Shown piece after piece: positions 11,716-30,118 of a DNA stretch of 45,870 bases; the stretch's first letter is position 1, and each line of letters begins with the position of its first letter. The DNA is from a virus. The notes beneath the pieces are model-generated. The model saw only the letters and a list, made by a program, of their open reading frames with translations, ran no database searches and had not been told where the DNA came from. The stretch lies in the IMG/VR virus record IMGVR_UViG_3300012931_000008; one strand, given 5' to 3'. A program made the translations under genes and the position numbers.

Positions 11716-13925
11716 ATAAAGAATTGAAGATCATCGTTGTTCGCAATCCTTTGGACGTCCAGAGGGACCGGCTCATTGTCTCGGCGCCGTTCGCCGGCCA
11801 GGACCTCCGTGACATCCTGGCCCAGTACGCCGCCGATCTGGAGTGCGTCATCGTCCGGATCAACGGCGTCAAGCTGCCGGCCGTCGAGAAGGACCACTAC
11901 AATCAGACGCTTCGGCCGGGCGATGAGGTCCTTATCCTGCCCGCGGTCCATGATCCGGTCAGCGCCACCATTGCCGTCGTTGCCTGGTTGGGTGCAGCCG
12001 CCGTCGCTGCCGCACCATATCTCATATCCGCCGCCATCAACATCGGGATATCCATTGGGATCGCCTACCTGATCCGGGCCATCGGAGGCTCGCCTGATGA
12101 CGCGGACGTGGACAGCACCCCGTCCTATGGCTGGTCGCCCATTACGATTCAGAGGCAGGGCACGCCGGTCCCCAGGGCCTACGGCACCAACAAACAGCAC
12201 GGCAACATCATCGCCGGCTGGCGCTCGCCCTCCGGCGCCGATGAGACCCTGAGCCTGCTGTTGGCGTTCAACGAGGGACCCGACAGCGGCATCGTCCCCG
12301 ATACGATCTATGTGAACGGCCAGCCCATAGACAATTACGACTCGGTGATCACCTATGAGCGCAAAGGGCTGATGGAGCAATCCGCCATCTTTAGCGCGCT
12401 CAAATGCGAATATCAGCCGGAGCTGGAGGTGATTCACACCTCCGATGCTGGCGGTCCGGTCATCTGGACGACGCCGGACAACGATTTCAACTCGCTGGAG
12501 ATCGCCGTCAAGTACAGCGGTCACTATGTTCACCAGGATGGAGGAACCGAAACCCAAACCGTGGGTGTAAAGATCGAGATATCCGAGCACGGCGCCGAGG
12601 ATTGGTATACCCTGGCCAACGAGCTGCTGAACTGCGCCACGACGCCGCTGCAGAAGAACTACCTCTCGACCGGCACCTACACCGGTGGCGCCGCTGTTGC
12701 GATCACTAAGGGCACCCGCTGCGATATCCGGATCACCAAGACCAACGCCGGGCGGATCTGGGACGCGAATCGAAAGAGCCGGTATCTTTATCTCTCGACC
12801 GTCCGTGAGGTCATCGCCACGGCCTTCGAGTATCCGGGCTTGTCGCTGTTGGGGATATCGGCTATCGCCACCGAAGACCTCAGCGGGGCGATGGAGGTCT
12901 CCTGTATCCGCAAGGGCCGCATCGTCAACGTCTATAACGGCTCGATCTGGACGCTGCAATGGTCGGATAATCCCGCCTGGGTGATCTGGGATATCTTGAC
13001 CCGGCCGGTGATCTCGGGCGATGGCGGCGGCACCCCATACGCCATTGAGCGGTACGATGGCATCGATCCGGCCCGGCTGACGGCTTATCTCGATGAGTGG
13101 TATGAGGCGGCCGAATATTTCGATGATTCCATTTCGGACGGCAAAGGGGGCTACGAAAAACGCATCATCTTCAACGGCGTCTTCGACTTTCAAACCACCA
13201 TCTGGGACGCCGTGGATAAAGTCTGCGCGATAGCCCGCTGTGAGGTGCTGCGGATCGGCCGCAATTATACGATCTTAGTCGATAAGCCGGACGCCTCGAC
13301 CCCGGTCCAGTTGTTCAGCGCCGGCAATATCAAGCCGGGTACGTTTCGCCGCAACTACATCGACCTCAATGACCGGGCCGGTGAACTGGAAATAGACTAT
13401 CAGGATTTAGACCTCGACTACGAGATGACCCCGATGCTCCACGTGGACCAGGCCATCGATAGTCACGCGGTCAAGACCATCGAAGGATTCGGGATCACGC
13501 GGGCCTCGCAGGCCTGGCGGGCGATCTATTATGAGCTCGCCAAAAACCGAATCCTCAAGTACATGGTCGAGTTCGAGGCGGACATCGACGCCATCGCGTG
13601 CAAAAAAGGCGATATCGTGTTGGTGGTCGAGCCCTGGCGATTGGGCGGCCGCGTGGTCGCCAGCACCGCCGCCAACAAGGTGACGCTCGACGTGGCGCCG
13701 GCGCTCAGCGCCGCCGATACGATTGCCGTGCGGGTCAATCACCCCGATACGGGCGCTGAGACGGTCGAGACGCACACGGTCGCCTCCGTCGCCGGGGCGG
13801 TCGTGACGATCGCCGACACCTGGACGGTGAGGCCGAAAAAGGACGATCTCTACGCCTTCGGCCCGACGGCAACCATCCTGAAGAAATTCCGCGTGGTCGG
13901 GATCGTCGAGGGTTCGGAACTATGA
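11712..13925 (+). CDS. gpI-like tail assembly domain fused to a gpJ-like central tail fibre (N-terminal two thirds of J)
   Basis: A ubiquitin-like N-terminus is followed by a Gly/Ala hydrophobic segment. QGTPVPRAYG and NPAWVIWDILTRP (lambda J: NNMAWCLWDMLTHP) are present. It ends ...KKFRVVGIVEGSEL, inside the J motif LFRCVSIRENDDGTYAI. Confidence 0.8.
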   Translation: MNKELKIIVVRNPLDVQRDRLIVSAPFAGQDLRDILAQYAADLECVIVRINGVKLPAVEKDHYNQTLRPGDEVLILPAVHDPVSATIAVVAWLGAAAVAAAPYLISAAINIGISIGIAYLIRAIGGSPDDADVDSTPSYGWSPITIQRQGTPVPRAYGTNKQHGNIIAGWRSPSGADETLSLLLAFNEGPDSGIVPDTIYVNGQPIDNYDSVITYERKGLMEQSAIFSALKCEYQPELEVIHTSDAGGPVIWTTPDNDFNSLEIAVKYSGHYVHQDGGTETQTVGVKIEISEHGAEDWYTLANELLNCATTPLQKNYLSTGTYTGGAAVAITKGTRCDIRITKTNAGRIWDANRKSRYLYLSTVREVIATAFEYPGLSLLGISAIATEDLSGAMEVSCIRKGRIVNVYNGSIWTLQWSDNPAWVIWDILTRPVISGDGGGTPYAIERYDGIDPARLTAYLDEWYEAAEYFDDSISDGKGGYEKRIIFNGVFDFQTTIWDAVDKVCAIARCEVLRIGRNYTILVDKPDASTPVQLFSAGNIKPGTFRRNYIDLNDRAGELEIDYQDLDLDYEMTPMLHVDQAIDSHAVKTIEGFGITRASQAWRAIYYELAKNRILKYMVEFEADIDAIACKKGDIVLVVEPWRLGGRVVASTAANKVTLDVAPALSAADTIAVRVNHPDTGAETVETHTVASVAGAVVTIADTWTVRPKKDDLYAFGPTATILKKFRVVGIVEGSEL

Positions 13926-14185
13926 GCCGCAAGATTGTTCTGATCGAATACGACGAGGATATTTACGATGGCGATGATATGGAGCCGAACATCCAGGATC
14001 CCAATTTCTACAATGCCGACCAGGGCGGCGAGACGGCCGCCGCGGCCGCCGAGGCGCTCGAAAGCGAGCGCGTGGACGCCAAGATCGAGGTTCAGCTCTC
14101 GGACCTGCACAGTTACCTGATTGGAATATCGAGCAGCAGCTCCTCGAGTTCTTCAAGCAGCAGTTCCTCAAGTTCCGGGGCCTGA
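13922..14185 (+). CDS. 87-aa tail-tip protein: J-completing adaptor plus an Ala/Glu helix, ending in 16 Ser then GA
   Basis: ATGA overlap with J. The N-terminus SRKIVLIEYDEDIYDGDDMEP continues the J motif (TYAITAVQHVPEKEAIVD) and is duplicated at 14187. Confidence 0.6.
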   Translation: MSRKIVLIEYDEDIYDGDDMEPNIQDPNFYNADQGGETAAAAAEALESERVDAKIEVQLSDLHSYLIGISSSSSSSSSSSSSSSSGA

Positions 14186-14186
14186 T

Positions 14187-15713
14187 ATGCCGCGAAAACT
14201 TACACTAATCGAGTACGATGAAAACGTCTATGACGGCGACGACATGGAGCCCGCCATCCAGTTCAGGGACGCTGTGCCCTCCGTGACGGGTCAGAAACGC
14301 CAGGAGATCACGGATAAAGAATTAGAGACCGTCGATAACGTAGAGATTGCCCAGCGCATCGAGGACATGCGGGTCTATGCCCGGTACATATCGAGCTCAT
14401 CGAGCGCCAGCTCCTCGAGCGCGACGCCCAGCGAGGAGCTCTTCGAGCATCATGAGACCGGCGGCGATTCGTCTTACACCATCGGCCAGACCGGTTACGC
14501 CAATATCCTCGCCCAGACCTTCACGCCGGATATCGCCCACCGGATCAGCCGGGTCGAGTTAGAACTCTTCGATCAGCAGGGCAACGGCCTGACGGGTGAC
14601 ATAACCATCGAGATCAAGGCGACCGACGTCAATGGCCTGCCGACGGGATCGGCCCTGGCCAGCGGCACGATTGACTCAGCGGATCTCAATCCGGGCCACT
14701 ACTCTGACGTCTATAACGACATCTACCGATCAGGCACAGGAGGAACAAATTATCTGTATGAGGTCTGTTTTTCCCAGGATGGCCTGCACATGTACTCCAT
14801 CAGTTATAAGAGTAGCTGGGGTGCTTACGGCATTCATCATTATATTCTGTCCGTGGCCTGGGATATCACAACAGCCTCATTGTCCGAATCTCATGAGCTG
14901 GATGACTGGGGACATGGTTCGTATTACTTTTTCGCGTTCGATTATAGGGGAATTTTCCTCAAACCAGATGGTACGAGAATATACATCGTGGGCAATCATA
15001 CCGAATACGGAAGTTTCATTTGGCGGATAGATCTTGATGTACCTTATTATATAAGCTCGGCGACTCCTTTCATCTCAGAAGATTTATTTGCCACCGCACA
15101 ACAACATTCCTGCTGGTTTAACGATGATGGGACCCGACTCTTCACGGCGGATAATTTAAACGATGCCGTTTTTCAATACAATTTGTCCACACCCTGGGAT
15201 ATCACCAGTTTTTCATCGACGCCCAGTCAGAGTACGAGCGTTTCAGCCTATACCAATAATACTCGCGGCGTTGCCTTCAGTGCCGATGGTCTGAAGATGC
15301 AGGTTATCGATGCTCAGTACCACAAGATACTCTTCTGGAATCTATCGACGGCCTTCAATCTATCGGGTGAATCAAAGGATTCCTACGAAATGGACATCTC
15401 CGGCATCATGACAACGCCGAGCGGATGCTATACGAAAGGCAATGGGAATACCTTCTTTGTTTGCGACGGCAGTTTGTCTGCCCTGACAGTCTATCGTTTC
15501 GATCTGCCCGCCCTGCACGGCGACTGGCATGAGGCGGACTTGGGGCTGGGCGACGAACTCGCCGCCGCGACCCAATATGCCCTGTGCGCCAGCTACGCGA
15601 ATTACGAGGAAGGCGTTAGCGAGCCGGAGTGGGTCAACAACGCCGATGGCGACGATAACTACCCGGCCGGAACGCTGCTGCGGTATGACGGCAGCAACTG
15701 GTACGACTCCTGA
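14187..15713 (+). CDS. Tail fibre / receptor-binding protein: duplicated J-adaptor, short Ser tract, beta-propeller-like repeats
   Basis: The N-terminus is MPRKLTLIEYDENVYDGDDMEP, followed by SSSSSASSSS. Five repeats of F(S/N/K)xDG(T/L)(R/K/H)(M/I/L) and xWDIT follow. The segment is AT-richer than its neighbours. Confidence 0.6.
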   Translation: MPRKLTLIEYDENVYDGDDMEPAIQFRDAVPSVTGQKRQEITDKELETVDNVEIAQRIEDMRVYARYISSSSSASSSSATPSEELFEHHETGGDSSYTIGQTGYANILAQTFTPDIAHRISRVELELFDQQGNGLTGDITIEIKATDVNGLPTGSALASGTIDSADLNPGHYSDVYNDIYRSGTGGTNYLYEVCFSQDGLHMYSISYKSSWGAYGIHHYILSVAWDITTASLSESHELDDWGHGSYYFFAFDYRGIFLKPDGTRIYIVGNHTEYGSFIWRIDLDVPYYISSATPFISEDLFATAQQHSCWFNDDGTRLFTADNLNDAVFQYNLSTPWDITSFSSTPSQSTSVSAYTNNTRGVAFSADGLKMQVIDAQYHKILFWNLSTAFNLSGESKDSYEMDISGIMTTPSGCYTKGNGNTFFVCDGSLSALTVYRFDLPALHGDWHEADLGLGDELAAATQYALCASYANYEEGVSEPEWVNNADGDDNYPAGTLLRYDGSNWYDS

Positions 15714-15724: not shown

Positions 15725-16435
15725 ATGGGTGAACAGCTTTACACACCGGGTCAATCAGGCAACTGGCAAGCGCCCTTTGCCGGCGAATGTCTCGTCGAAT
15801 GCTGGGGCGGCGGCGGCACGGGCGGCGGCGGGGCCAACGGCAACGGCACGGGCGGCGGCGGCGGCGCGGGAGGTCAATATGCAAAGAAGACCGTCACCGT
15901 CGTTAAGGGCCAGAACTATTACTATACCGTCGCGGCCGACCGGGCCGGGGTTGGCAAGGGCATCAACGGCAACGCGGGCTATACTACCTCTTTCGGTCCG
16001 ATTGCGAGTCCTTTGGTCCGTGCGATGGGCGGCGCGGGCGGCTTGGCCTACGATAACGGAGGTACAGGCGGCGCTGGCTCGACCACTAACGGCATCGGCG
16101 ATACGGTCTATGCCGGCGGCAATGGAGCGGATTCGGGCGTCGATTACGGAGGCGGCGGAGGCGGCGGAGCGGGTTCCACCGGCGCCGGCAATAGCGGCTC
16201 CGGTTCGACGGGCGGGACGGCCAAAGCAGATAACGGCGGCGCCGGCGGCAACGGATATTCCGGCAGCACGGGCGATGGCTCTCCAGGGGGTGATTACGGC
16301 GGCGGCGGAGGAGGGTCCACCAAGGCCGGGACCAGCGGCGGCGGCAACGGCGGGTATATGAAGATCACATGGGAAAACATCGCCGGCAGCAAATACGATT
16401 TGAATTTCCGAGAGTATGGCTATCGATTGGAGTAA
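15725..16435 (+). CDS. Glycine-rich tail-fibre-like protein
   Basis: ECWGGGGTGGGG...GGQYAKKTVTVVKGQNYYYTV is typical of the glycine-rich domain found in phage fibre proteins. Confidence 0.55.
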   Translation: MGEQLYTPGQSGNWQAPFAGECLVECWGGGGTGGGGANGNGTGGGGGAGGQYAKKTVTVVKGQNYYYTVAADRAGVGKGINGNAGYTTSFGPIASPLVRAMGGAGGLAYDNGGTGGAGSTTNGIGDTVYAGGNGADSGVDYGGGGGGGAGSTGAGNSGSGSTGGTAKADNGGAGGNGYSGSTGDGSPGGDYGGGGGGSTKAGTSGGGNGGYMKITWENIAGSKYDLNFREYGYRLE

Positions 16436-16438: not shown

Positions 16439-16711
16439 ATGGACGTGAAGATTCTCATCACTGTGGCGGCCATTGTGGTCCCGATTATCGTGGGGCTTTT
16501 CTGGGGTCTCTATAGTCACAGCTCCAATACGGATCGTCATCCGGCCAAGAAGGACCTCGTCTTCAAAGACGTCTGCGAACCCAAGATGAAAGGCTTAGAG
16601 GATTGCATCGAGGCGAAATTGGATGGCTTTGAAAAATTGATGAAGCAGCATTTTGACAATCTCGAAAAACTGATTCGCAGCAACGGCGGACCGCCCCGCG
16701 TGCAAACCTGA
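16439..16711 (+). CDS. Small membrane protein (one N-terminal TM helix plus a coiled coil)
   Basis: The TM segment is ILITVAAIVVPIIVGLFWGLY. Function unknown. Confidence 0.5.
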   Translation: MDVKILITVAAIVVPIIVGLFWGLYSHSSNTDRHPAKKDLVFKDVCEPKMKGLEDCIEAKLDGFEKLMKQHFDNLEKLIRSNGGPPRVQT

Positions 16712-16724: not shown

Positions 16725-17339
16725 ATGACTGAATCCCAGCCTCAATTTCCCGACCTCGAGACCTGGCGGCGGACAGTCGTCAAGCCGGGCGATCTGCCTC
16801 AATATCTGAGACAGGATTTCTACGATTATTACAAGAGCAAATTCGAGATTGCCCTATCCGCCCGGCCCCAAGTCATCTGTGAGATCGGGGTGCGGTGGGG
16901 CTATTCGGCCTTCAGCTTTTTGTGTGCAGCCTCTGCGGCCCATTATACGGGATTCGATATTGTGGACGGCACGCACGGTGGGGCCCGAGGGCTGGATACA
17001 TTCGATTATGTAAGGACTATGCTCAGCGGCCATTTCCCACAGGCCGTCATCGATCTTCGCCATGAGGATACCCGCAAGCTTCGCGACTTAGGCGGGCCTT
17101 ACGACTTGGTCCACGTGGACGGCGATCACAGCGAGGACGCCGCCTCTCACGATATCTGGATGGCCCTCCGGGCCTGCCGTCCGGGCGGGATGGTCCTGGT
17201 CGATGACTACAACTATATCGCCGGGGTGACAAGGGCGGCGGATTACATCCTGTCCGGCGCGCCCGAGCAGATAGCCCGCCATTGGACGCAGGATTCGCTG
17301 CGAGGTGAATTGATTCTAATCAAAGGGGATCCGAAATGA
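16725..17339 (+). CDS. Class I SAM-dependent methyltransferase 1 (Methyltransf_24 / sugar O-MT-like)
   Basis: VICEIGVRWGYS (SAM motif I) and DLVHVDGDHS..GGMVLVDDY. The first ATG is at 16725 and the ORF opens at TTG 16716. Confidence 0.7.
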   Translation: MTESQPQFPDLETWRRTVVKPGDLPQYLRQDFYDYYKSKFEIALSARPQVICEIGVRWGYSAFSFLCAASAAHYTGFDIVDGTHGGARGLDTFDYVRTMLSGHFPQAVIDLRHEDTRKLRDLGGPYDLVHVDGDHSEDAASHDIWMALRACRPGGMVLVDDYNYIAGVTRAADYILSGAPEQIARHWTQDSLRGELILIKGDPK

Positions 17340-17827
17340 TCAAACTGCGGCCCTCGATAGAGATTGTTCGCCATTGCTGCCCGGCCCCCGTCGCCGGCGC
17401 CGAGATCGGCGTTTTGGGCGGCGGCCACGCCGTCACTATGCTCCGCAATTTCCCTGAGCTGCGGATGCTTCATCTGGTCGATTCCTACGGCGGTATCAGC
17501 GAGCAGGACCCCAAGGTGATCGAGTTCAAGAATCGTTTCGCCCCCGAATCGCAGCGGATCCGCTGGCACATCCGCACGTCGCTGGACGCCTCCATTGAAT
17601 TTGCCGACGGCTCGCTGGATTTCGTCTATATCGACGCGAATCACCGCTATTTCGAAGTCGCCCGGGACATCCGGGCCTGGTGGCCCAAGGTCAAAGCGAC
17701 GGGCCTTTTGTGCGGACACGATTATTTCAGTCATGGCTCAGTAAAACAGGCCGTCGATGACTGGGCCAAAGAATTCAATCATTACATCTTTTCGACCGCA
17801 CCCGACTGGTGGTGCTTCAAGGAGTGA
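17336..17827 (+). CDS. Class I SAM-dependent methyltransferase 2
   Basis: GAEIGVLGGGHA and LDFVYIDANH..TGLLCGHDY. ATGA-coupled to the upstream gene. Confidence 0.65.
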   Translation: MIKLRPSIEIVRHCCPAPVAGAEIGVLGGGHAVTMLRNFPELRMLHLVDSYGGISEQDPKVIEFKNRFAPESQRIRWHIRTSLDASIEFADGSLDFVYIDANHRYFEVARDIRAWWPKVKATGLLCGHDYFSHGSVKQAVDDWAKEFNHYIFSTAPDWWCFKE

Positions 17828-17828
17828 C

Positions 17829-18437
17829 ATGGACATCGACTATAACCAGCTCATCAAGGACAGCAATAACCGCATCGCCGCCCTCGATTTGCAGCTCTTG
17901 GAGCGGGCCTGCGATCATTGCCGGGCAAAAACGATTCTGGAGATCGGCTCGGCCGACGGCGGCTCCTCGGTCATACTCGGCCTCAAGGCCAAAGAGCGCG
18001 GTGGGCATCTCTATTGCATCGAGCCTCAGCCGAAAGGTCGCATGAAGGCGAACATGACCGCCCATGATTTGGAGGGTGTTTACACCCTCATCGCTAAAGC
18101 GTCCCCATGGATCCAGTTCGAGGCCATACCGCCAATCGACCTATTGTTCATCGACGGTCGTCACGATCTTCGCTGGTGCCTGGTTGATTATCACTATTGG
18201 CAGCCGAAGGTCCGCGTCGGCGGCGTCATTGTCTTTCACGATACGAGCGGTCATTGCCAGGAAGACCGCCGCCAATCCGGCTACGGCCAGCCGGGCTATA
18301 AGCCTCTCGTGCAGCGGGCCATCGATATCATCCTGACGACGGACGCGCTGCGGATTGTCGGCATTTCAGAGACCCCCAACGGCGGGGCTATCGCCTTCGA
18401 GAAAACTGAATTCATCGAATCGAAAGGAACGCCATGA
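17829..18437 (+). CDS. Class I SAM-dependent methyltransferase 3
   Basis: ILEIGSADGGSS and LLFIDGRHD..GGVIVFHD. ATG 17829 lies 1 nt after the upstream stop. Confidence 0.65.
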   Translation: MDIDYNQLIKDSNNRIAALDLQLLERACDHCRAKTILEIGSADGGSSVILGLKAKERGGHLYCIEPQPKGRMKANMTAHDLEGVYTLIAKASPWIQFEAIPPIDLLFIDGRHDLRWCLVDYHYWQPKVRVGGVIVFHDTSGHCQEDRRQSGYGQPGYKPLVQRAIDIILTTDALRIVGISETPNGGAIAFEKTEFIESKGTP

Positions 18438-19315
18438 ATATCTTAGTCACCGGCGGGGCCGGCTTCATCGGCCGGCACGTTTGCGCCAATCTGATTGCCC
18501 GCGGCCACAAGGTCCTTGTCTATGATGTCGTCAAACCTGACTGGCCGGGCGTGATTCATACGAGCGGCTGTGTCCAGGATAAGAGCAAACTCTGGTCCGC
18601 CATCGAGATTGCCGACGCCGTGATGCACTTGGCCGGCGTCTTGGGCACGGCTGAGACCATCGAAGATCCACTCTTGCCGATCAACGTGAATATCACCGCG
18701 TCGGTGGACGTGTTCGAGGCCTGCCGAAGGTTCCACAAGCGGGCCTGCTATATCGCGGTGGGCAATCACTTTATGAACAATTCATACGCGATCACCAAGA
18801 CAACCGCCGAGCGTTTCGCCCTGATGTACAACAAAGAGCACGGGACAAAGATCGCCGTCGTGCGAGGCCTCAATGCTTATGGTCCCTACCAGAAGCATAA
18901 GCCCGTCCGCAAGGTCATCCCGAATTTCATCATCCCCGCCCTGCGAAATGACCCCATCATCATCTATGGCTCCGGCGAGCAGATCATGGACTTCATCTAC
19001 GTGGAGGACTTAGCGGAAATTTTGTGTCGGGCCTTGCTGGATGATCACGGCTGCTATGACCGCATCTTCGAGGCGGGCAGCGGCCATCGTATGACGATCA
19101 ACGAGGTCGCCGAGATAGTGATCCACCTGGCGAGATCATCATCGCGGATTGATCATCATGCTATGCGCGGCGGCGAGACGAACGATTCGATCGTGGTGGC
19201 GGACGTGCGGACGCTGGCGCCGTTGAAGTACTCCGTCGCCGGGATGATCGCATTGGAAGAGGGTCTGACCCGGACCATCGATTACTACCGAGAGCACCTG
19301 GAACTTTATCCATGA
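18434..19315 (+). CDS. NAD-dependent sugar epimerase/dehydratase (extended SDR)
   Basis: MNILVTGGAGFIGRHV (Rossmann GxxGxxG) and YAITKTTAE (YxxxK). ATGA-coupled. Confidence 0.8.
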   Translation: MNILVTGGAGFIGRHVCANLIARGHKVLVYDVVKPDWPGVIHTSGCVQDKSKLWSAIEIADAVMHLAGVLGTAETIEDPLLPINVNITASVDVFEACRRFHKRACYIAVGNHFMNNSYAITKTTAERFALMYNKEHGTKIAVVRGLNAYGPYQKHKPVRKVIPNFIIPALRNDPIIIYGSGEQIMDFIYVEDLAEILCRALLDDHGCYDRIFEAGSGHRMTINEVAEIVIHLARSSSRIDHHAMRGGETNDSIVVADVRTLAPLKYSVAGMIALEEGLTRTIDYYREHLELYP

Positions 19316-20031
19316 AACTTTTCTTTTTCACCTACGTGGATCGCAATCCCAAGTATCGGGCGGAGGCCGATATCCTGATTCGGTCCGGGCGGCGGTTCGG
19401 TCGGGACATTTATCTATTCGAGATCCCCGATGGTGCGATGTGGAACCGATACAAGGTCGATCTCTTGGCTGCTGAGCTACCCGCCGCTGACCGCTACATC
19501 TGCCTCGATAGCGATACGATCCTGACGGGCCCGGGCGATTGGGAGGCGGAGGATTGTCAGGGCGTGATGGATATCCTGTATTATTGCGATGAACATGAGC
19601 GGGACAAACATACGAAGGCCTTCATCCGCAATCACACCATCTGCCGTGGCGATCCGGGCGCCTACGACTGCGTTCTATCGCTGTGGCGACAATTCAATGA
19701 TCCGATCTGGCCGAACAGCGGCGTCGTGGTCCTCGATGCTGGAATCCGCCTGCCCTTTGCCGAGTGCTGGAAGCAGTGGATGGCCCAGATTGATAGCCAC
19801 TGTGATCGAGGCTATATCATCGGCGATGAAGCGCCCTGCATGTTCGCCCGGCACGAGTTCGGCCTTCCGCTGCTGCCGCCGCGATTCAACATCTGCTTGA
19901 AATGGCAACCCGTGCCGGCCGATGCCGTGCTCCTGCACGCCGACGGCAACGTCACGGGCGAAAAACGAATCCCTTACAATGAAGTTTTGGAAGATCTGAT
20001 CGCCTATGAGCGAACCGCAAAAGCCTTATGA
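19312..20031 (+). CDS. GT-A glycosyltransferase, GT8-like
   Basis: YICLDSDTI (DxD), NSGVVVLD and LLHADGNV resemble GT8 signatures. Confidence 0.6.
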   Translation: MKLFFFTYVDRNPKYRAEADILIRSGRRFGRDIYLFEIPDGAMWNRYKVDLLAAELPAADRYICLDSDTILTGPGDWEAEDCQGVMDILYYCDEHERDKHTKAFIRNHTICRGDPGAYDCVLSLWRQFNDPIWPNSGVVVLDAGIRLPFAECWKQWMAQIDSHCDRGYIIGDEAPCMFARHEFGLPLLPPRFNICLKWQPVPADAVLLHADGNVTGEKRIPYNEVLEDLIAYERTAKAL

Positions 20032-20782
20032 GATTTCAAATCTCGAATCTCAAATTATCTTCCCGCCCTGGTATGGTGAGTTGGGCTGGGAGGTGATGAC
20101 CTGGGCGCCCTTCTGCCGGCGGGCGGCCCAAGGCCATGAACGGGTAATCGTGACGACCTTCGATGGGATGGCTCCCTTATACGCCGACTTCGCCACCGAG
20201 TTTCGCTCGAATGGAGAGAGGGCCCGCTCGCTGACGTATCCCAAGCATTATCGCGTCAAGGGCCTCCATTACCGGTACGGCCGGCGCGAGAAGGCGGGGA
20301 CGTATTTCGACCTATTGATTCATGCCAGGGGCGTCGCCCGCAAGAGCAGTATCAATTATCGCTACTGGCCCCAGCTTGCGGACCTCATCGAGCGCAAGGG
20401 CTGGTCGGTGGCCTGGATCGGCGGGCCGAAGGATACCTGGCAGCCCGGCTGCGGTTTCGATCTGCGAGGCCTGGAGCTTCAAAAGCTGATGGACATTATC
20501 GCCGCCTCGAGGTTGGTCATAGGCGTCAGCTCGGGGATCATGCACTTAGCGGCCGCGTGCGGAACGGACTTACTCGTCTGGGGCGATCGCCGGACCTATT
20601 TCGGCGAGACGCTTGAGACGCGCTACAAGGCAACATGGAACCCGCACCAGGTCCGGGTCGGCTGGATTGACGCCGACAACTGGCAGCCGGAACCGCAGCG
20701 GATCATCGAAGAAATCGAAACAATAATCAATCAGACGGGTCAGACAGGTCGGACAGGTCAGACAATGAAAGGACAGCAATGA
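20006..20782 (+). CDS. GT-B glycosyltransferase, GT9 (heptosyltransferase)-like
   Basis: PPWYGELGWEVMTWAPF and LVIGVSSGIMHLAAACGTDLLVWG. The start is uncertain because the ORF overlaps the upstream gene and the F array. Confidence 0.55.
   Translation: MSEPQKPYEISNLESQIIFPPWYGELGWEVMTWAPFCRRAAQGHERVIVTTFDGMAPLYADFATEFRSNGERARSLTYPKHYRVKGLHYRYGRREKAGTYFDLLIHARGVARKSSINYRYWPQLADLIERKGWSVAWIGGPKDTWQPGCGFDLRGLELQKLMDIIAASRLVIGVSSGIMHLAAACGTDLLVWGDRRTYFGETLETRYKATWNPHQVRVGWIDADNWQPEPQRIIEEIETIINQTGQTGRTGQTMKGQQ
20032..20059 (+). repeat. F-type array, 4 x 7 nt (AATCNNN)
   Basis: gatttca aatctcg aatctca aattatc. It starts right after the TGA of the GT8-like gene. Confidence 0.6.
20730..20765 (+). 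repeat. A-type array, 4 x 9 nt
   Basis: atcagacgg gtcagacag gtcggacag gtcagacaa. Here it is read as QTGQTGRTGQT. It ends 13 nt before ATG 20779. Confidence 0.9.
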
Positions 20783-22647
20783 AAATTCTCTTGCGCAATA
20801 CCCAACCGCTCTTGGGCGACCGGCTGATGTTCACACCTTTAGTGCGGGATTTGAAAAAGGCCCATCCCGACTGGCGGATCGGCGTCGAATCGGCCGGGCC
20901 GGAGATCTGGCTGAATAATCCACACGTGGATTGCTCGATCAATGAGGCGAACGCCGACAAGATCTACGACGTCGGGCCGGGCAAGGTGACGCGGGGCAGT
21001 AAGACCAACGGCTTGCACATCACAGCAGCCTTCCGCTGCTCGCTGGAAGAGCAGTTAGGCGAGGCAATTGCCCAGGGTCCCTTCAAGCCGGACGTTTATC
21101 TTTCAGACGCTGAGAAGGCCCAGCGCATGATCGACGGCGACTATTGGGTGATCAATTGCGACACGGGGCCTTTCACCGCCAAGCGCTGGCCGTTAGAGCG
21201 ATTTCAGGCCGTGGTAAATGCATTGCCGGACCTGACGTTCGTTCAGGTCGGCTTAGGCAAGGACTGTCACGGCCGGCTCAAAGCCCCCAATGTCATCGAC
21301 CTGATCGACGGGACCAAGGTCCGCGAACTCTTCAGCCTGGTCTATCACGCCCATGGCTGCATCAGCCTGGTCAGTTCGCTCATGCACGTCGCTGCCGCCT
21401 TCGATAAGCCTTGCGTAGTGATCGCCGGCGGACGCGAGCCGCCGACCTTCGAACGGTACGCCTGGCATCGCTACATCGACAACGTCGGCTGCCTGCCCTG
21501 CTGCAAGATGCAGGCCTGCTGGCACAATGCGCTATCCGCCTGTAAGGACCATGATGACAATTACGCCCATTGCATGAGGCTCATAGAGGCCCCTGACGTC
21601 GTCTCAGCCGTGCGATCCTATTATCGGGGGGGAAGGCTCGAATCGCCCAGGTCTATCAAAGCGGCGGCCACGCTGCGGCCGTTGCTGCGTATCGTGGCGA
21701 AAGGCTCATTCTTAGGTGGGGCCGAGCGGTCCTGGACCACGATTGCCCGGCTTTTCGTCAAGAACAACTGGCGGGTCGAGATCTCGCCCCCCGATCCGCT
21801 GAATCCCGCCGTCGCCGCCCAACTGCCGCCGGAGGCCATCGTGACGAACCATCTCTCTCGCCCCTGCGATGTGCTGCTGTTCTATGCCTCGGATCTGGTG
21901 TTCAGCTTCGATGACCCCAAGTACGGCATCTTTGAGGAGCTGCGGTCCGGCCGCAAGGTCATGGCCCTGACCTATAAGATCGGCAAGGCGGGCGAGGTCC
22001 CCTGGACCAAAGGCTGGGACCGGTATCTCTTTCTCTCGACCGCGCTTCGGGACGGCTTTCAGGCGAAGGTTGGAAAGGCAGTGTTTTCAAGTTGCGTTCT
22101 CGCCCCCTGTGTGGACCTTGAACCGTTTCTGAGAATGTCCGACAAGTCAGACAGGTCCGACAAGTCCGACCAGATTCGATTAGTTCGCCATTCGAGCCAG
22201 GGCGATAAGAAGTACCCGATGAGCCTCTTGCAGATCATGGCCGAGACGAAGGCCCGGTATAACTTCATGCCTAAACCGGGCTTTTTGTCGGAGAGATCGG
22301 ACAAGTTAGACTGGTCCGATTGGTCCGACGACCCCGAGAAGGTCGCCGCCTTTCTTGCCTCCGGCAATTGCTTCTGGTACCTGCTCCCGGACGGCTACAC
22401 CGACCAGGGCCCGCGCGTGATCGTCGAGGCGATGGCCGCGGGCCTGCCGGTGATCGCCGAGAACCGCGACGGCGCCGCCGATCGCGTCACGCCGGAAACC
22501 GGATGGCTCATCGATCGGCATGAGGAGGCAATCGAAATAATCTCAAATCTCAAATCTGAGATTTTGATGGCGAAGGGCCGGGCCGCCCGCCAGCGGGCCA
22601 TCGAAGAATTCAAACCGCTAAAATGGTTCGAGGCCATCGTGAAATAA
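20779..22647 (+). CDS. Fusion glycosyltransferase: N-terminal GT9-like (with a Cys cluster) plus C-terminal GT4/GT1-like
   Basis: GDRLMFTPLVRDLKKAHPD and LVSSLMHVAAAFDKPCVVIAGGREP (GT9). Cys cluster CLPCCKMQACWHNALSACKDHDDNYAHC. VIVEAMAAGLPVIAENRDG (GT4). It carries A arrays in frame. Confidence 0.7.
   Translation: MKILLRNTQPLLGDRLMFTPLVRDLKKAHPDWRIGVESAGPEIWLNNPHVDCSINEANADKIYDVGPGKVTRGSKTNGLHITAAFRCSLEEQLGEAIAQGPFKPDVYLSDAEKAQRMIDGDYWVINCDTGPFTAKRWPLERFQAVVNALPDLTFVQVGLGKDCHGRLKAPNVIDLIDGTKVRELFSLVYHAHGCISLVSSLMHVAAAFDKPCVVIAGGREPPTFERYAWHRYIDNVGCLPCCKMQACWHNALSACKDHDDNYAHCMRLIEAPDVVSAVRSYYRGGRLESPRSIKAAATLRPLLRIVAKGSFLGGAERSWTTIARLFVKNNWRVEISPPDPLNPAVAAQLPPEAIVTNHLSRPCDVLLFYASDLVFSFDDPKYGIFEELRSGRKVMALTYKIGKAGEVPWTKGWDRYLFLSTALRDGFQAKVGKAVFSSCVLAPCVDLEPFLRMSDKSDRSDKSDQIRLVRHSSQGDKKYPMSLLQIMAETKARYNFMPKPGFLSERSDKLDWSDWSDDPEKVAAFLASGNCFWYLLPDGYTDQGPRVIVEAMAAGLPVIAENRDGAADRVTPETGWLIDRHEEAIEIISNLKSEILMAKGRAARQRAIEEFKPLKWFEAIVK
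22137..22172 (+). repeat. A-type array, 4 x 9 nt, inside the glycosyltransferase ORF
   Basis: gtccgacaa gtcagacag gtccgacaa gtccgacca, read as SDKSDRSDKSDQ and preceded directly by an in-frame ATG (22135). Confidence 0.9.
22296..22331 (+). repeat. Degenerate A-type array, 4 x 9 nt
   Basis: atcggacaa gttagactg gtccgattg gtccgacga, read as RSDKLDWSDWSDD. Confidence 0.6.
22539..22559 (+). repeat. F-type array, 3 x 7 nt
   Basis: aatctca aatctca aatctga, within the glycosyltransferase C-terminus. Confidence 0.55.
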
Positions 22648-25600
22648 ATGTCAACCACAGGGGCGAAATTTCCGACCGCATCGTCCACCACATCAGAGGC
22701 CCCCTACGATCATCTGACCTGGCAGACGCCGAACAACATCTTCGGCAACGAAGGCAACAACTGCTACATTGACGACAACGCCTTCGATAGCGGCATCGAA
22801 TCCTACATCCTCAAGGGCAAAGGTTTTGACTTTTCCGTCATCCCCGACAGCGCGACCATCGTCGGCGTCACCGTCAAGGTGGAAGCCCACTATACCACTG
22901 GCGCCGCCGGCATTGCCTTGGCCCAGCTCTTAGATACCAGCGGCGCCAAGGTGGGAACGAACCTCTGCTCGACGCCCAAACCAATCACTCAAACGACGCC
23001 GACCGTGATTACGATCGGCGCGGCGGACAATCTCTGGGGCAACGTCCTGACGCCTCAATGGGTGAAGGACCCCGATTTCGGCGTCGCGCTCGGGGTGATC
23101 CCGACGGGCAATAATTCCAATGTCTATATCGACTACGTCACGATGGAAGTGACCTACGCCGAATCCAGCTCCAGCTCCTCGAGCAGCAGCTCAAGTTCGA
23201 GCAGCAGCGAGTCGTCTTCCAGCTCTTCGCTAAGTTCGAGCAGCAGCGAATCGTCTTCCAGCTCATCTTCGTCTTCGAGCCAGTCGAGCAGCTCCTCTTC
23301 ACAGTCGAGCAGCTCGACAAGTTCCAGCTCTTCATCATCGAGCAGTTTTTCAGCGACGCCTTTGCCCGGTTTTCTCGTCACGGATGACATCACGAACTAT
23401 ATTAATCTCAACCATACGATACACCGAAAGCTGGTACGAACATCGAACGGGGATTTGCACTGTGTCTATTACCGTACCATTTCGGGATACAATCAAATCT
23501 GCTACGCCAAATCGACGGATGGCGGAGAAACATGGGCCGAGACACAACTAACTTCTGCCAATTATGGTCAGTCCAATCCAGCGATAGCAGTTGATTCGAA
23601 TGATGTTCTCCACGTCGTTTGGGAAGGCAAATCAGCCGGCAGCACCACCAACGCACAAATCCGCTACATGAAATACGACGGTTCGTGGAGCGGCATTACT
23701 GAATTGACCGACAGCACAAAGGGAGACGGCGCGCAAACCTATTGTGGCATCGCCGTCGATTCGAATGATTATCTTCACGTCTGCTGGGAAGGTAAACCGG
23801 AAGGTGGTTCTTATCACCAAATTCGCTATATCAAATTTACAGATTCATGGCAGACCATTGTAGATTTATCCTCTGAAACCTACGATCAGGGTGTTCCCAC
23901 TATTGGCGTCGCTCCCAATGATAATGTTCACGTATTCTGGGATGGCCAGAACGATGCGTCGCCAACCCATGTCCAAGTCCACCATCGTGTCTATACGGAT
24001 TCGTGGCAGGATATTGAAGACCTCACATCAAGTGAATGGAGTTCATACGAACCGCACTGTGCGTTTGATTCAAGCGGCAACGTGCATTTAGCTTATCAAA
24101 GTCAGGAAGAGACTGTATGGAATGTCAGATACCGGCTCTACAACGGCTCCTGGCAGGCCGAGGTGGATATAACAAGTGGAAGCATCTACGAGAACTCATC
24201 TATTACGATTGCTGTCGATGCTCAGGATGATATACACGTTGCTTGGAATGGTTATCACGCTGGTTCGTCGAGCACCTACCAAATCCGCTACCGCCTCTAT
24301 AACGGTTCCTGGCAGGCGATTCAAAACCTCACGGAATATTTACCCGAGCAGCGGGTGCCCAATCTGATCTGGGCCTATCATCCCATCATCGGCGGCGCCC
24401 GAACGAATCGCCCGGCGACGGGCTATGCCCTGATCTGGGCCAACGATAATTCAGAGATCCGCTATTTAGCCAGTGACGATCTAACCTGGGATCCGCCGAG
24501 TTCTTCATCGAGCTCCTCGGAATCTTCAAGCAGCAGCGAATCGAGTTCCAGCCAGTCGTCTTCCAGCTCGTCATCAAGCCAAAGCTCCAGCTCGTCGTCC
24601 TCGAGTTCGTCGCAGTCCAGCTCCAGCAGCTCGTCAAGCCTGAGCTCCAGTTCGTCCAGCAGCAGCGAATCGTCCTCAAGCTCATCGTCCTCGCTGAGCT
24701 CCAGTTCGAGCAGCAGCCTTTCGTCCAGCTCATCATCCAGCAGCCTTTCCAGCAGTTCGTCCAGCAGCTCGCTGTCGTCCAGCTCATCGTCATCGAGCCT
24801 TTCGTCCAGCTCATCATCGAGCGAAAGCTCCAGCTCTTCGAGCAGCTCAAGCTCCGAATCGATTTCATCGTCCAGCAGCTCGCTTTCGTCAAGCTCATCG
24901 TCATCGAGCCAAAGTTCCAGCTCTTCGAGCAGCTCAAGTTCCGAGTCGAGTTCATCGTCCAGCAGCTCGCTTTCGTCAAGCTCATCGTCATCGAGCCTAT
25001 CGTCCAGTTCGTCATCGAGCCAAAGTTCCAGCTCTTCGAGCAGCTCAAGTTCCGAGTCGAGTTCATCGTCCAGCAGCTCGCTTTCGTCAAGCTCATCGTC
25101 ATCGAGCCAGTCGAGCAGCAGCAGCCAATCGAGTTCCAGCCAGTCGTCTTCAAGCCAATCGTCTTCAAGCCAATCGTCTTCAAGCTCGCAGTCGTCATCG
25201 AGCCAGTCGAGCAGCAGCAGCCAATCGAGTTCCAGCCAGTCGTCTTCCAGCTCGCAATCGTCATCGAGCCAGTCGAGCAGCAGCAGCCAATCGAGTTCCA
25301 GCCAATCGTCTTCCAGCTCGCAATCGTCATCGAGCCAGTCGAGCAGCAGCAGCCAATCGAGTTCCAGCCAGTCGTCTTCAAGCTCGCAATCGTCATCGAG
25401 CCAGTCGAGCAGCAGCAGCCAATCGAGTTCCAGCCAATCGTCTTCAAGCTCGCAATCGTCATCGAGCCAATCGAGCAGCAGCAGCCAATCGAGTTCCAGC
25501 CAGTCGTCTTCAAGCTCGCAATCGTCATCGAGCCAGTCGAGCAGCAGCAGCGAGTCGTCTTCCAGCCAATCGTCTTCCAGCTCGCAGTCGTCATCGAGCC

Positions 25601-26112
25601 AGTCCAGCAGCAGCAGCCAATCAAGTTCGAGCCAGTCGTCCAGCAGCAGCGAATCGTTTTCCAGCCAGTCGTCTTCCAGCCAATCGTCCTCTTCCAGCTC
25701 GATCTCACTATCTTCATCGAGCGAATCCTCGAGCACCTCCTCCTCCTCGAGCAGCTATGGCCTATCACCCAATACGGCGGACCGGGCCTTAATGGCGGCG
25801 GGATTCGGCGTTCAGGAGAGTCTATCGGCGGCGACGATCACCTATCTGGCTCGCGGCGGCGGCTCTCGCTCGATTAAGGCGATTGTGGAATACGTGGGCG
25901 CTCAGCCGCTCGACGGTCTAAAAGGCGGCTCGCGGCCACACGTGGAGCTGCTCGTTCGCAATCACGCGACGTTAGGCATCTTATCGAAGGAGATTGACAC
26001 CGGCGGTGATAAGGTCCAGGTCCCGCTGCGGATGGGCCGCTCGGTGCGGACCGTTCGGATCGTGAAAATTATAGCCCAGGACCGGGCCATGCTGCGGCTC
26101 GCCGCCTGGTAA
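22648..26112 (+). CDS. 1154-aa serine-rich virion appendage protein: unknown N-domain, Ser linker, six-bladed BNR-like propeller, ~420-aa Ser tract, gpFII-like C-domain
   Basis: Asp-box STDGGETW. Six repeats of the (I/C)A(V/F)D(S/A)xDxxH(V/L)xW(E/N/D)G type. The C-terminal 110 aa align with ORF 5639..5986 (GGSRPHVELLVRNHA..IDTGGDKVQV..VRIVKIIAQDRAMLRL vs GGSRPPMEVLVKNNA..VDTGGDRIEV..FRIVEIVNHDAGLMLL). Confidence 0.75.
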   Translation: MSTTGAKFPTASSTTSEAPYDHLTWQTPNNIFGNEGNNCYIDDNAFDSGIESYILKGKGFDFSVIPDSATIVGVTVKVEAHYTTGAAGIALAQLLDTSGAKVGTNLCSTPKPITQTTPTVITIGAADNLWGNVLTPQWVKDPDFGVALGVIPTGNNSNVYIDYVTMEVTYAESSSSSSSSSSSSSSSESSSSSSLSSSSSESSSSSSSSSSQSSSSSSQSSSSTSSSSSSSSSFSATPLPGFLVTDDITNYINLNHTIHRKLVRTSNGDLHCVYYRTISGYNQICYAKSTDGGETWAETQLTSANYGQSNPAIAVDSNDVLHVVWEGKSAGSTTNAQIRYMKYDGSWSGITELTDSTKGDGAQTYCGIAVDSNDYLHVCWEGKPEGGSYHQIRYIKFTDSWQTIVDLSSETYDQGVPTIGVAPNDNVHVFWDGQNDASPTHVQVHHRVYTDSWQDIEDLTSSEWSSYEPHCAFDSSGNVHLAYQSQEETVWNVRYRLYNGSWQAEVDITSGSIYENSSITIAVDAQDDIHVAWNGYHAGSSSTYQIRYRLYNGSWQAIQNLTEYLPEQRVPNLIWAYHPIIGGARTNRPATGYALIWANDNSEIRYLASDDLTWDPPSSSSSSSESSSSSESSSSQSSSSSSSSQSSSSSSSSSSQSSSSSSSSLSSSSSSSSESSSSSSSSLSSSSSSSLSSSSSSSSLSSSSSSSSLSSSSSSSSLSSSSSSSESSSSSSSSSSESISSSSSSLSSSSSSSSQSSSSSSSSSSESSSSSSSSLSSSSSSSSLSSSSSSSQSSSSSSSSSSESSSSSSSSLSSSSSSSSQSSSSSQSSSSQSSSSQSSSSQSSSSSQSSSSQSSSSSQSSSSQSSSSSQSSSSQSSSSSQSSSSQSSSSSQSSSSQSSSSSQSSSSQSSSSSQSSSSQSSSSSQSSSSQSSSSSQSSSSQSSSSSQSSSSQSSSSSQSSSSQSSSSSESSSSQSSSSSQSSSSQSSSSSQSSSSQSSSSSESFSSQSSSSQSSSSSSISLSSSSESSSTSSSSSSYGLSPNTADRALMAAGFGVQESLSAATITYLARGGGSRSIKAIVEYVGAQPLDGLKGGSRPHVELLVRNHATLGILSKEIDTGGDKVQVPLRMGRSVRTVRIVKIIAQDRAMLRLAAW
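23161..23345 (+). repeat. Ser-codon tract 1 of the giant ORF (about 60 codons)
   Basis: Mixed AGC/TCN codons with occasional E, L, Q and T. Confidence 0.85.
24499..25754 (+). repeat. About 1.26 kb of Ser-codon tandem repeats, including about 7-8 copies of a 66-nt unit (about 25110-25640)
   Basis: The unit is cagtcgagcagcagcagc caatcgagttccagc cagtcgtcttccagctcg caatcgtcatcgagc (QSSSSS QSSSS QSSSSS QSSSS). Successive 60-nt lines shift by 6 nt. Confidence 0.85.
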
Positions 26113-26131: not shown

Positions 26132-26172
26132 CCCCCGCGCTGTCGTATCGCCCGATAGCCGCGGGGGTTTTT
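26132..26172. terminator. Bidirectional rho-independent terminator at the convergence of the late operon and the minus-strand genes
   Basis: Stem cccccgcg / cgcggggg, followed by TTTTT on the + strand. Confidence 0.75.
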
Positions 26173-26178
26173 ATTTAG

Positions 26179-26921: not shown

Positions 26922-27060
26922 ACTGATAGAAATGAATAAGGAGTTACCGTATGCGACAGAGCAATCTGATGAACCTCAAGCATGGCCCTCAAGCGCCGAT
27001 ACTTCCCGATGCTCTGTCGCAGGATGTCATCCTTAGTGTCGGCGCTGTTTTTTCTTTTGA

Positions 27061-27096
27061 CCACAAAGACCACGAAGGGCACGAGGGGCACGAAGC
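27061..27096 (+). repeat. B-type array, 4 x 9 nt (CACGAAGNN)
   Basis: ccacaaaga ccacgaagg gcacgaggg gcacgaagc. Confidence 0.85.
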
Positions 27097-27102
27097 CGGA
27101 TC

Positions 27103-27130
27103 GATGAACGATGAACGACGATCGATGAGC
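27103..27130 (+). repeat. H-type array, 4 x 7 nt (GATGAAC)
   Basis: gatgaac gatgaac gacgatc gatgagc. Confidence 0.7.
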
Positions 27131-27222
27131 TGTTTGGGCCTCCTTACCCGGCCATGGTCCGGGTCTTTTCATCGCCCGGATTGTAGCATAAGTGGAGCGG
27201 TGTTGTCAACAATAAATTTTCA

Positions 27223-27249
27223 CCACGAAGGGCAAGGGATTACGAATAA
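27223..27249 (+). repeat. Degenerate B-type array
   Basis: ccacgaagg gcaagggat tacgaataa. Confidence 0.5.
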
Positions 27250-27257
27250 CGGTTTAA

Positions 27258-27285
27258 CCACGAAGGGCACGAAGGGGCACGAAGA
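27258..27285 (+). repeat. B-type array, 3 units
   Basis: ccacgaagg gcacgaagg (g)gcacgaaga. Confidence 0.85.
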
Positions 27286-27290
27286 TGAAC

Positions 27291-27325
27291 AATCTTAAAT
27301 CACAAATCACAAATCTTAGATCCAA
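27291..27325 (+). repeat. F-type array, 5 x 7 nt
   Basis: aatctta aatcaca aatcaca aatctta gatccaa. It ends 18 nt before ATG 27344. Confidence 0.75.
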
Positions 27326-27343
27326 GTCGGGAGGTCAAGCCTG

Positions 27344-27673
27344 ATGGTTGCTTTTGCCGAACATAAACTCCCCGCGGCCCTCGACATCGCCATGACCTTA
27401 GAGGCGGATCTCTACAGGGTCTGCAGGATGGACGGTCTGGCAGCCGCCTGCATCGACAGATACTGGCCGGCGATGACGGCTGATCAAATCGCTGAGATCA
27501 TGATGAACACCTTTGCCTCTGAGTTGCTTCCGTCAATCGACAGTCCATCGGCGGAGTTTAATGCCATCGCCAAAGCGGCCTTCAGGACAGCCCCCAAACG
27601 CGCCATAGACGATACGCTCGCTCAAACGTGCCGAACCGCGAAAGGTACAAAGGAACACGAAGATGAGCAATAA
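27344..27673 (+). CDS. Hypothetical protein (first early gene)
   Basis: RBS gggagg lies 11 nt upstream. The C-terminus runs through a B array (AKGTKEHEDEQ). Confidence 0.55.
   Translation: MVAFAEHKLPAALDIAMTLEADLYRVCRMDGLAAACIDRYWPAMTADQIAEIMMNTFASELLPSIDSPSAEFNAIAKAAFRTAPKRAIDDTLAQTCRTAKGTKEHEDEQ
27637..27663 (+). repeat. Degenerate B-type array overlapping a start codon
   Basis: cgcgaaagg tacaaagga acacgaag-ATG. Confidence 0.5.
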
Positions 27674-30100: not shown

Positions 30101-30118
30101 CCACGAAGAACACGAAGG
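30101..30118 (+). repeat. B-type array, 2 units, followed by 2 F units
   Basis: ccacgaaga acacgaagg, then ag caatcga aaatcac. Confidence 0.7.

Follow-up and report, generated by a model that had tools for sequence, protein, structure and literature searches.

Poly-serine-tailed virion proteins and a linked seven-gene cassette in a lambda-like siphophage: a candidate virion O-glycosylation system

Our analysis of the virus record IMGVR_UViG_3300012931_000008 from IMG/VR revealed evidence for a glycan-synthesis and transfer cassette that is linked to serine-tailed virion proteins. The stretch of 45,870 nucleotides, referred to here as the window, is the near-complete genome of a temperate lambda-like siphophage. 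Seven genes at positions 16725-22647 encode three methyltransferases, a nucleotide-sugar epimerase/dehydratase, two single-domain glycosyltransferases and a fusion of a GT9 with a GT4 glycosyltransferase (hereafter the fusion), and poly-serine tracts occur on seven proteins of the virion module. We consider it probable, from comparisons of sequences and gene neighborhoods, that the phage uses the cassette to O-glycosylate its own virions, with the poly-serine tracts as acceptor tags.

This reading builds on the co-occurrence of the fusion with poly-serine proteins, which the preliminary description had named as a check. A tract was counted when at least 8 of any 10 residues were serine and it was encoded within 10 kb of the fusion gene. 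Such proteins were found on 36 of 42 fusion-bearing IMG/VR contigs and on four of the five genome contigs with fusion relatives, that is at 40 of 47 fusion-bearing loci compared to none of 21 fusion-less controls (386 kb; Fisher p = 6e-12), in counts that are not phylogenetically independent. Bacteria of the candidate phyla radiation (CPR) with weak matches to the GT4 half alone encoded no poly-serine proteins (0/11). A second comparison was anchored on relatives of the tail-tip protein gpJ. Here, tails were present in all 12 evaluable cassette-positive loci and absent from all 10 cassette-negative loci, each of which offered 4-9 kb of cassette-free sequence beyond gpJ (Fisher p = 1.5e-6; collapsing near-identical loci gives about 1e-5). 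No locus in this gpJ-anchored set combined serine tails with an empty cassette region. Two loci with neither cassette nor tails (L048 and L049) encode a gpJ that is 50% identical to that of the window and thereby closer than the gpJ of some cassette-bearing relatives. The same split is visible in single proteins: gpM orthologues from cassette-less loci end at the folded domain, whereas the same proteins in the cassette clade carry 20-60 extra serines. All orthologues of head cement protein A in cassette-bearing relatives were tailed, as were all 11 of the tail tube orthologues found.

Fusion-bearing phages that lack a lambda-like gpJ showed serine tails on four kinds of virion protein, namely a major head protein (L016, phrog_283), a baseplate wedge subunit (L024, phrog_6), a head structural protein (L026, phrog_587) and a tail protein (L009). 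The co-occurrence therefore recurs across unrelated structural modules and is not the property of one lineage. Together, this recurrence and the split between loci with and without the cassette support the earlier suggestion that the target is the phage's own poly-serine tails and not the lipopolysaccharide (LPS) of the host. One could alternatively suppose that the cassette makes another product, for instance glycosylated DNA bases or a polysaccharide of soluble or capsule-like type, and meets the tails only through shared lineage or host range. GT-B enzymes do glycosylate DNA in some phages, and our counts are uncorrected for phylogeny. We nevertheless regard the absence of a functional link as very improbable, given that no hydroxymethylase or base-modification enzymes were found among the phage open reading frames (ORFs) scanned, that the association spans the unrelated modules named above, and that it breaks cleanly between relatives as close as those with 50% gpJ identity.

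The tagged proteins of the window belong to head, tail and tip and are all encoded on the plus strand. Head cement/decoration protein A (3672-4091; Phage_cement_2, 25.4 bits; phrog_673) ends in a tail of 19 serines at residues 121-139 and its paralogue, protein B (4228-4617; phrog_673), in one of 11 serines at residues 119-129. The tail tube protein (7046-7468), whose gene is flanked by the neck genes and that of the tail assembly chaperone, carries a C-terminal run of 16 serines at residues 125-140; its match to the lambda-like tail tube family is weak (26.4 bits, cut-off 28.4). A 35-residue serine-rich tail closes the tail-tip protein in the gpM position (10197-10661), between the tape measure gene and gpL. 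An 87-amino-acid protein (13922-14185) consists of an N-terminal module and a tail of 16 serines, and the next gene encodes a fibre-like protein (14187-15713) with the same module and a short internal serine linker at about residues 90-101 of the 14121 ORF. The common module of these two proteins reads M.RK..LIEYDE..YDGDDMEP, and the 87-amino-acid protein gave a cross-match with p530 (E 2.5e-13). The major capsid protein of the window phage has no tail.

The largest of the tagged proteins, and the presumed main acceptor, is a giant protein of 1154 amino acids with 40% serine (22648-26112). An N-terminal domain is followed by 66 residues of poly-serine (171-236), a BNR-like region, 421 residues of poly-serine (617-1037) and a C-terminal domain. 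The match of the middle part to BNR_2 is weak (25.5 bits, under the cut-off). The C-terminal 90 residues (25828-26100) are paralogous to the 115-amino-acid product of g5639 (5639-5986, plus strand), a gene adjoining that of the major capsid protein and without a Pfam or PHROG match (41% identity, BLASTP E 4e-20). From its sequence and position the g5639-type domain is probably a virion-anchoring domain. The same type of domain also occurs 3′ of serine tracts in two further loci (L003 and L095).

The serine runs of the window mix all six serine codons, which argues for selection on the amino acid and not on a DNA repeat. The possibility that the runs are a trinucleotide-repeat artefact or were read in the wrong frame was ruled out by this codon usage. 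The C-termini of lambda gpD and gpV are surface-exposed, as is known from phage display, and a placement of tags on cement and tube proteins fits with this.

The gene for the giant protein begins 1 nt after the stop codon of the fusion gene, and many related loci have genes for large serine-rich proteins shortly after that of the fusion. Hence, the cassette could have a narrow target, in that only the adjacent large fibre-like protein is glycosylated, much as in the serine-rich-repeat adhesins, and the short tails serve unmodified as flexible or hydrophilic bristles. The short tails, however, are no less tightly associated with the cassette than the large proteins, and some fusion-bearing loci (e.g. 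L016 with its tailed major head protein, and L026) show only C-terminal tails on structural proteins in the fetched stretch. A target restricted to the large protein thus appears unlikely to us.

The tails of more distant phages have features of their own. In seven loci (L021, L023, L026, L027, L029, L038, L040) serine-tailed proteins are encoded 2-3.5 kb upstream of the fusion, and their tails are up to about 170 residues long and periodically punctuated by Cys-Arg or Cys (SSSSSSCRSSSSSS...). Many tails of distant phages end in ...QAVA, ...ANP or ...ATA.

Within the cassette itself, all seven ORFs lie on the plus strand at the positions initially assigned to them. The tight coupling by ATGA overlaps that had been reported was seen at four junctions (methyltransferases 1 and 2, methyltransferase 3 and the epimerase/dehydratase, the latter and the GT-A enzyme, and the small GT9 enzyme and the fusion). 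Other junctions read TGACATG (methyltransferases 2 and 3) and TAAATG (fusion and giant protein). Six of the seven proteins had Pfam matches above the curated cut-offs. No transmembrane segments were detected in any of the seven, and the enzymes are considered soluble.

The three methyltransferases are class I S-adenosylmethionine (SAM)-dependent enzymes with matches to Methyltransf_24 (PF13578, cut-off 26.3 bits). Methyltransferase 1 (16725-17339, 55.9 bits) lies in an ORF that opens with TTG at 16716 and likely starts at the ATG at 16725, and is followed by methyltransferase 2 (17336-17827, 48.4 bits). The ORF of methyltransferase 3 (17829-18437, 71.2 bits) opens at 17757, and its likely start is the ATG 2 nt past the stop of methyltransferase 2. 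They had been described as three paralogues; the common family assignment stands, but with pairwise identities of 25-29% they are only distant paralogues. The nearest solved structures to methyltransferase 3 are family-3 O-methyltransferases, and it is this methyltransferase that is kept most widely across related loci.

The fourth gene (18434-19315) encodes an NAD-dependent nucleotide-sugar epimerase/dehydratase of the extended short-chain dehydrogenase/reductase (SDR) type (Pfam Epimerase, 135 bits), with the motifs previously noted, GGAGFIG at residues 7-13 and YAITK at residues 118-122. Best matches in the Protein Data Bank (PDB) were UDP-glucose 4-epimerase, UDP-GlcA decarboxylase and dTDP-glucose dehydratase. 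None of the NCBIfam equivalog models, HldD included, reached its cut-off. An identity as ADP-heptose 6-epimerase (HldD) would have tied the system to heptose; it was rejected, since TIGR02197 gave 62.6 bits where 274.6 are required and was outscored by GalE-, UXS- and RmlB-type enzymes. Judged by sequence, the SDR appears to be a generic GalE-, UXS- or RmlB-like enzyme.

The fifth gene (19312-20031) encodes a retaining GT-A-fold glycosyltransferase according to its predicted structure. Searches of Pfam, NCBIfam and PDB by sequence and family profile gave no match, and none of its 43 homologues carries a Pfam domain. An AlphaFold (AF2) model from 39 sequences (pLDDT 96) has a retaining GT-A fold, with GT6 blood-group transferases, the catalytic domain of UGGT (GT24) and A64R of chlorovirus PBCV-1 as the nearest Foldseek matches (E about 1e-5, TM 0.5-0.6). 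Residues D66-x-D68 (the DxD motif), N135 and H209 are invariant in the homologues. Of the original assignment as a GT8-like GT-A enzyme with a DSD motif, the fold and the invariant DxD were borne out and membership in GT8 was not established, with none of the 50 best Foldseek matches described as GT8. The enzyme represents an orphan family that is restricted to these phages. In one related locus (L020:13368-14552) it is fused to a C-terminal methyltransferase-like domain (class I, with Methyltransf_24-like motifs in the alignment).

The last two genes encode the GT9-like enzyme and the GT9-GT4 fusion that had been recognized from the sequence, and both assignments are confirmed by Pfam scores above the cut-offs for Glyco_transf_9 (PF01075, 22 bits) and Glycos_transf_1 (PF00534, 26.4 bits). 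The small GT9-family enzyme (20006-20782, 258 amino acids) scored 34.8 bits with PF01075; its best NCBIfam heptosyltransferase score was 24.9 bits against a cut-off of 185.3, and it is present in 15 of the 42 fusion-bearing loci. The fusion (20779-22647) comprises a GT9 domain with a four-cysteine (Cys4) knuckle at about residues 1-290 (PF01075, 33.7 bits) and a GT4 domain at about residues 300-622 (PF00534, 31.1 bits). Its AF2 model (pLDDT 94, pTM 0.90) shows two GT-B modules. The C-terminal half belongs to GT4 by both its Pfam score and its GT-B fold, and in Foldseek it matched GT4 enzymes including BshA and PimB′ (E 1e-9 to 1e-12). For the N-terminal half the best GT9 match was TibC (4rap; E 2e-9, root-mean-square deviation (rmsd) 4.8 Å over 309 columns, 19% identity), compared to E 1.2e-8 and rmsd 8.6 Å for WaaF. 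The iron-finger cysteines of TibC, C339, C342, C358 and C370 (PMC4358343), all stand opposite cysteines of the fusion in a phmmer alignment. Across 79 homologues of the fusion C241, C247 and C265 of this cluster do not vary, and conservation of C255 is 90% or more. The aspartate of the GT9 ′GD′ motif, D14, sits where TibC has its catalytic aspartate D110.

Several points weigh against the proposed O-glycosylation of virion proteins. A sequence profile built on the family of the fusion matches WaaF (E 5.9e-5) ahead of TibC (E 3e-3). The fusion scores 22.2 bits with TIGR04414, the model of the BAHT family (TibC/AAH protein O-heptosyltransferases), and does not reach the cut-off of 200; the models of LPS heptosyltransferases are not reached either, with TIGR02195 as the best (30.4 bits, cut-off 134.6). 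The N-terminal beta-barrel of TibC, residues 1-97, is needed for activity (PMC4358343). It is absent from the fusion model, which opens directly with a Rossmann fold (strand 2-7, helix 12-28, strand 33-38) and thus leaves no room for such a barrel. For sugar-nucleotide synthesis the cassette encodes one SDR and no further pathway. On the side of the loci, the phylogenetic dependence of the counts has to be added, as well as seven loci in which the fetched stretch holds no strong poly-serine tract (L002, L017, L018, L030, L039, L041 and L091). Some of these negative loci, including L002, are cut by the contig end, and L017 and L018 encode short ...VEVSSSSSA tails and Ser/Cys-rich proteins. Finally, the temperate lifestyle, with an integrase at 28668-29699, leaves room for a role in lysogenic conversion.

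The comparison of TibC/AAH with WaaC/WaaF, which had been suggested as a check, gave a divided answer: structure and the Cys4 cluster favor TibC, the profile ranks WaaF higher and the beta-barrel of TibC is missing. By sequence the GT9 domain appears inseparable from LPS heptosyltransferases. Of four features tested for BAHT membership two were found (GT9-like domain and Cys4) and two were not (beta-barrel and a TIGR04414 score above the cut-off). The GT9 domain of the fusion is thus a separate clade that shares one derived feature with protein-heptosylating enzymes, and it is not a BAHT member.

If the cassette acted in lysogenic conversion, it would modify the LPS core, O-antigen or another envelope glycan of the host against superinfection, and the poly-serine tails would be unrelated to it. 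GT9 is classically the family of LPS heptosyltransferases, the profile match to WaaF lies slightly above that to TibC, the integrase and the tRNA-Met beside it belong to a temperate phage, and the likely hosts are diderm. The position of the cassette speaks for another function. It lies within the late operon, after gpJ and the fibre genes and before the gene for the giant serine-rich protein, to which it is translationally coupled; the integrase and attachment site are some distance away (6 kb to the integrase). The sole terminator of the late operon is found 3′ of the serine-rich gene, in agreement with the earlier statement that none precedes about position 26132: an intrinsic terminator at 26133-26178 on the plus strand, read by eye, with the hairpin CCCCCGCG...CGCGGGGG followed by TTTTTATTT, ends the operon. 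A consensus terminator scan did not report this hairpin. Moreover, the cassette includes no flippase, bactoprenol-linked component or membrane protein, it tracks serine-tailed virion proteins also in unrelated phages, and cellular genomes hardly ever contain the fusion. We therefore judge lysogenic conversion to be distinctly unlikely.

The fusion forms the conserved core of the system: it is constant across loci, and the methyltransferases, SDR, GT-A enzyme and small GT9 enzyme vary. It had 311 metagenomic homologues at E<=0.001, many of them on contigs of about 40 kb and a few of them binned as Planctomycetota. With tblastn at E<=1e-5, nothing in 50,697 GenBank phage records matched it. Among 185,579 genomes, one per species, only five loci with real relatives of the fusion were found, all on phage-like contigs or contigs of metagenome-assembled genomes (MAGs): one from Phycisphaerae, three from Verrucomicrobiota MAGs and one fragment. 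In BFVD, proteins of ′uncultured Caudovirales′ annotated as RfaF or Aah/TibC resemble the fusion. The hosts are likely diderm bacteria of the Planctomycetota-Verrucomicrobiota group.

Some homologues of the fusion are longer (880-975 amino acids; loci L021-L040, e.g. L021:9800-12598) and contain an extra domain between the GT9 and GT4 halves. Pfam missed this inserted domain. A hidden Markov model (HMM) of the insert was weakly similar to the methyltransferases of the window, and its profile matched class I O-methyltransferases in PDB (3ntv at 8.5e-7, 3r3h and family-3 O-methyltransferases). By these profile matches, the longer homologues are GT9-O-methyltransferase-GT4 triple fusions. Natural fusions of this kind, and the GT-A-methyltransferase fusion described above, tie the activities into one pathway and support the methylated-sugar part of the preliminary description. 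The 880-975-amino-acid forms also carry an N-terminal Cys-rich stretch (MKCLICG...). A fragment in CP070751.1 (L095, 3670468-3690896) shares 57% identity with the last 144 residues of the fusion and is adjoined by a 273-amino-acid serine-rich protein with a g5639-like domain. The record is labelled as a chromosome of a ′Thermoplasmata archaeon′ MAG; the locus could represent what is left of a prophage, or an error of binning or assembly.

Under the virion O-glycosylation that we propose, the seven enzymes would be made late, in the cytoplasm, alongside the structural proteins. The SDR would tailor a nucleotide sugar of the host, and the GT9 domain of the fusion might then initiate O-glycosylation on serines of the cement, tail tube, gpM and tip tails and of the tracts of the 1154-amino-acid protein. 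The GT4 half, the small GT9 enzyme and the GT-A enzyme could extend or branch the glycan, and the three O-methyltransferases would cap its sugars. The outcome would be a mucin-like coat of methylated glycan on head, tail and tip, which might act in shielding, colloidal stability or adhesion, with the giant protein as a long glycosylated tether that presents the BNR-like domain. More tentatively, we lean towards a wider interpretation as a horizontally mobile ′tag-and-coat′ system. A C-terminal poly-serine run would make any virion protein a glycan carrier, as in the cement, tube, tip, gpJ, major capsid and baseplate proteins that have gained such runs in different phages, and one GT9(Cys4)-(O-methyltransferase)-GT4 writer would recognize homopolymeric serine and build a dense, methylated, mucin-like glycocalyx on many uncultured Planctomycetota and Verrucomicrobiota phages.

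The system that comes closest in logic is the virion glycosylation of mycobacteriophages, and the enzyme that comes closest in mechanism is TibC/AAH. The acceptors in these mycobacteriophages are reportedly C-terminal extensions of capsid and tail-tube subunits. A writer cassette combined with C-terminal acceptor extensions on surface proteins is also what the genes predict here. The mycobacteriophage system was reported by Freeman et al. 2023 (Cell Host Microbe 31:1216), as cited in PMC12582341 and PMC13313380, with the decoration of virion proteins ascribed to phage-encoded glycosyltransferases together with a methyltransferase. Differences are that the fusion is without a sequence relative in the GenBank phage records, actinobacteriophages included, and that the writer here is a GT9-GT4 enzyme with a Cys4 knuckle, accompanied by an orphan GT-A enzyme. 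The candidate acceptors are homopolymeric serine runs and not mixed extensions, and there are many more carriers across phages (cement, tube, gpM, gpJ, fibres, major capsid protein and baseplate). In addition, the hosts are apparently Planctomycetota and Verrucomicrobiota instead of Actinobacteria, and the glycosylation is predicted from sequence.

TibC and AAH hyper-O-glycosylate many serines of one protein substrate (PMC4358343). Enzymes of their family form a dodecameric ring and take ADP-heptose as donor. They resemble the fusion in their GT-B, GT9-like catalytic core and in the aligned cysteines of the Cys4 finger. The fusion differs from them by the lack of the N-terminal beta-barrel, the missed TIGR04414 cut-off and the fused GT4 domain, and its candidate acceptors are disordered poly-serine and not a beta-helix. 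The LPS core heptosyltransferases WaaC, WaaF and WaaQ act on lipid A-Kdo and belong to a cellular LPS-core locus, unlike the fusion gene in its phage late operon. The serine-rich-repeat adhesins of Gram-positive bacteria combine long serine-rich tracts with the dedicated GT-B enzymes GtfA/GtfB and an accessory Sec system. Long serine-rich tracts encoded beside GT-B glycosyltransferases, including a GT4-type one, are a common feature. The window, in contrast, encodes no accessory Sec system, the location would be the virion and not the cell wall, and the tracts are near-pure serine instead of SASESAS-type; GtfA was not among the top Foldseek matches of the fusion. PBCV-1 is a eukaryotic virus with N-linked glycans. 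Its A64R (PDB 2p6w), a viral GT-A enzyme acting on the virus's own capsid protein, matches the GT-A enzyme of the window at the level of the fold only (TM about 0.5, 11% identity). Seroconverting prophage cassettes (gtrABC, Oac) encode membrane proteins, lie near att/int and are expressed from the prophage. They share with the window the temperate phage and the glycosyltransferases and differ from its soluble enzymes, late operon and co-occurrence with serine-tagged virion proteins. A search of the literature on poly-serine tails, serine-rich virion proteins and heptosyltransferases in phage virions revealed no prior description.

As for the remaining genome, the head module includes a gpA-type large terminase (43260-45212), a portal, a ClpP-like protease, the two cement/decoration paralogues and the major capsid protein. 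The tail module comprises neck, tail tube, chaperone, tape measure, gpM/L/K/J-like tip proteins and fibre-like genes. The gene order 3′ of the fibre-like genes is cassette, serine-rich protein, integrase with adjacent tRNA-Met, and ParB- and HerA-like early genes. No GenBank phage record exceeds 26% identity to the terminase, and a blastn search of GenBank phages with the DNA of the cassette gave zero matches. Between the fibre-like gene and the cassette lies a gene for a 236-amino-acid Gly-rich protein (15725-16435; GGGGTGGGGANGNGTGGGGGAGG...) without a family match and with homologues only in L001 and L028. Directly 5′ of the cassette (16439-16711) is the gene for a 90-amino-acid protein, also without a family match, which has a strong transmembrane helix near its N-terminus (Kyte-Doolittle 2.68). 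No lysis genes were recognized within the window. Six clusters, each of two to three tandem 9-mers with a consensus of about GGCACGAAG (e.g. CACGAAGGGCACGAAGGAGCACGAAGA), are located at 27058-28383 and 30098-30122. Three of them are spaced about 378 nt apart, and most lie near the 3′ ends of small plus-strand ORFs by the integrase and tRNA-Met; the clusters could be iterons or operators. In the early region, an ORF at 32475-33410 adjoining the HerA-like ATPase has a weak Radical_SAM match (20.7 bits, cut-off 29.5).

To our knowledge, actinobacteriophages are the only phages for which virion glycosylation by phage-encoded enzymes has been demonstrated, and this is a recent finding; we know of no cultured representative of the fusion-bearing phages. 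Should the wider, tag-and-coat interpretation hold, the system would be the first of wide distribution to glycosylate virions outside of actinobacteriophages and would provide a natural, portable glyco-tag. If our main reading is correct, the GT9 domain of the fusion would be a second, structurally distinct GT9 enzyme acting on protein serines beside TibC/AAH, and the poly-serine tag with its GT9-GT4 writer would make a compact tool for site-directed O-glycosylation of displayed proteins. Phage sugar coats would then be far more common in nature than thought, with a bearing on particle stability, adhesion to mucus or biofilm matrix, host recognition, and shielding from immune systems or proteases.

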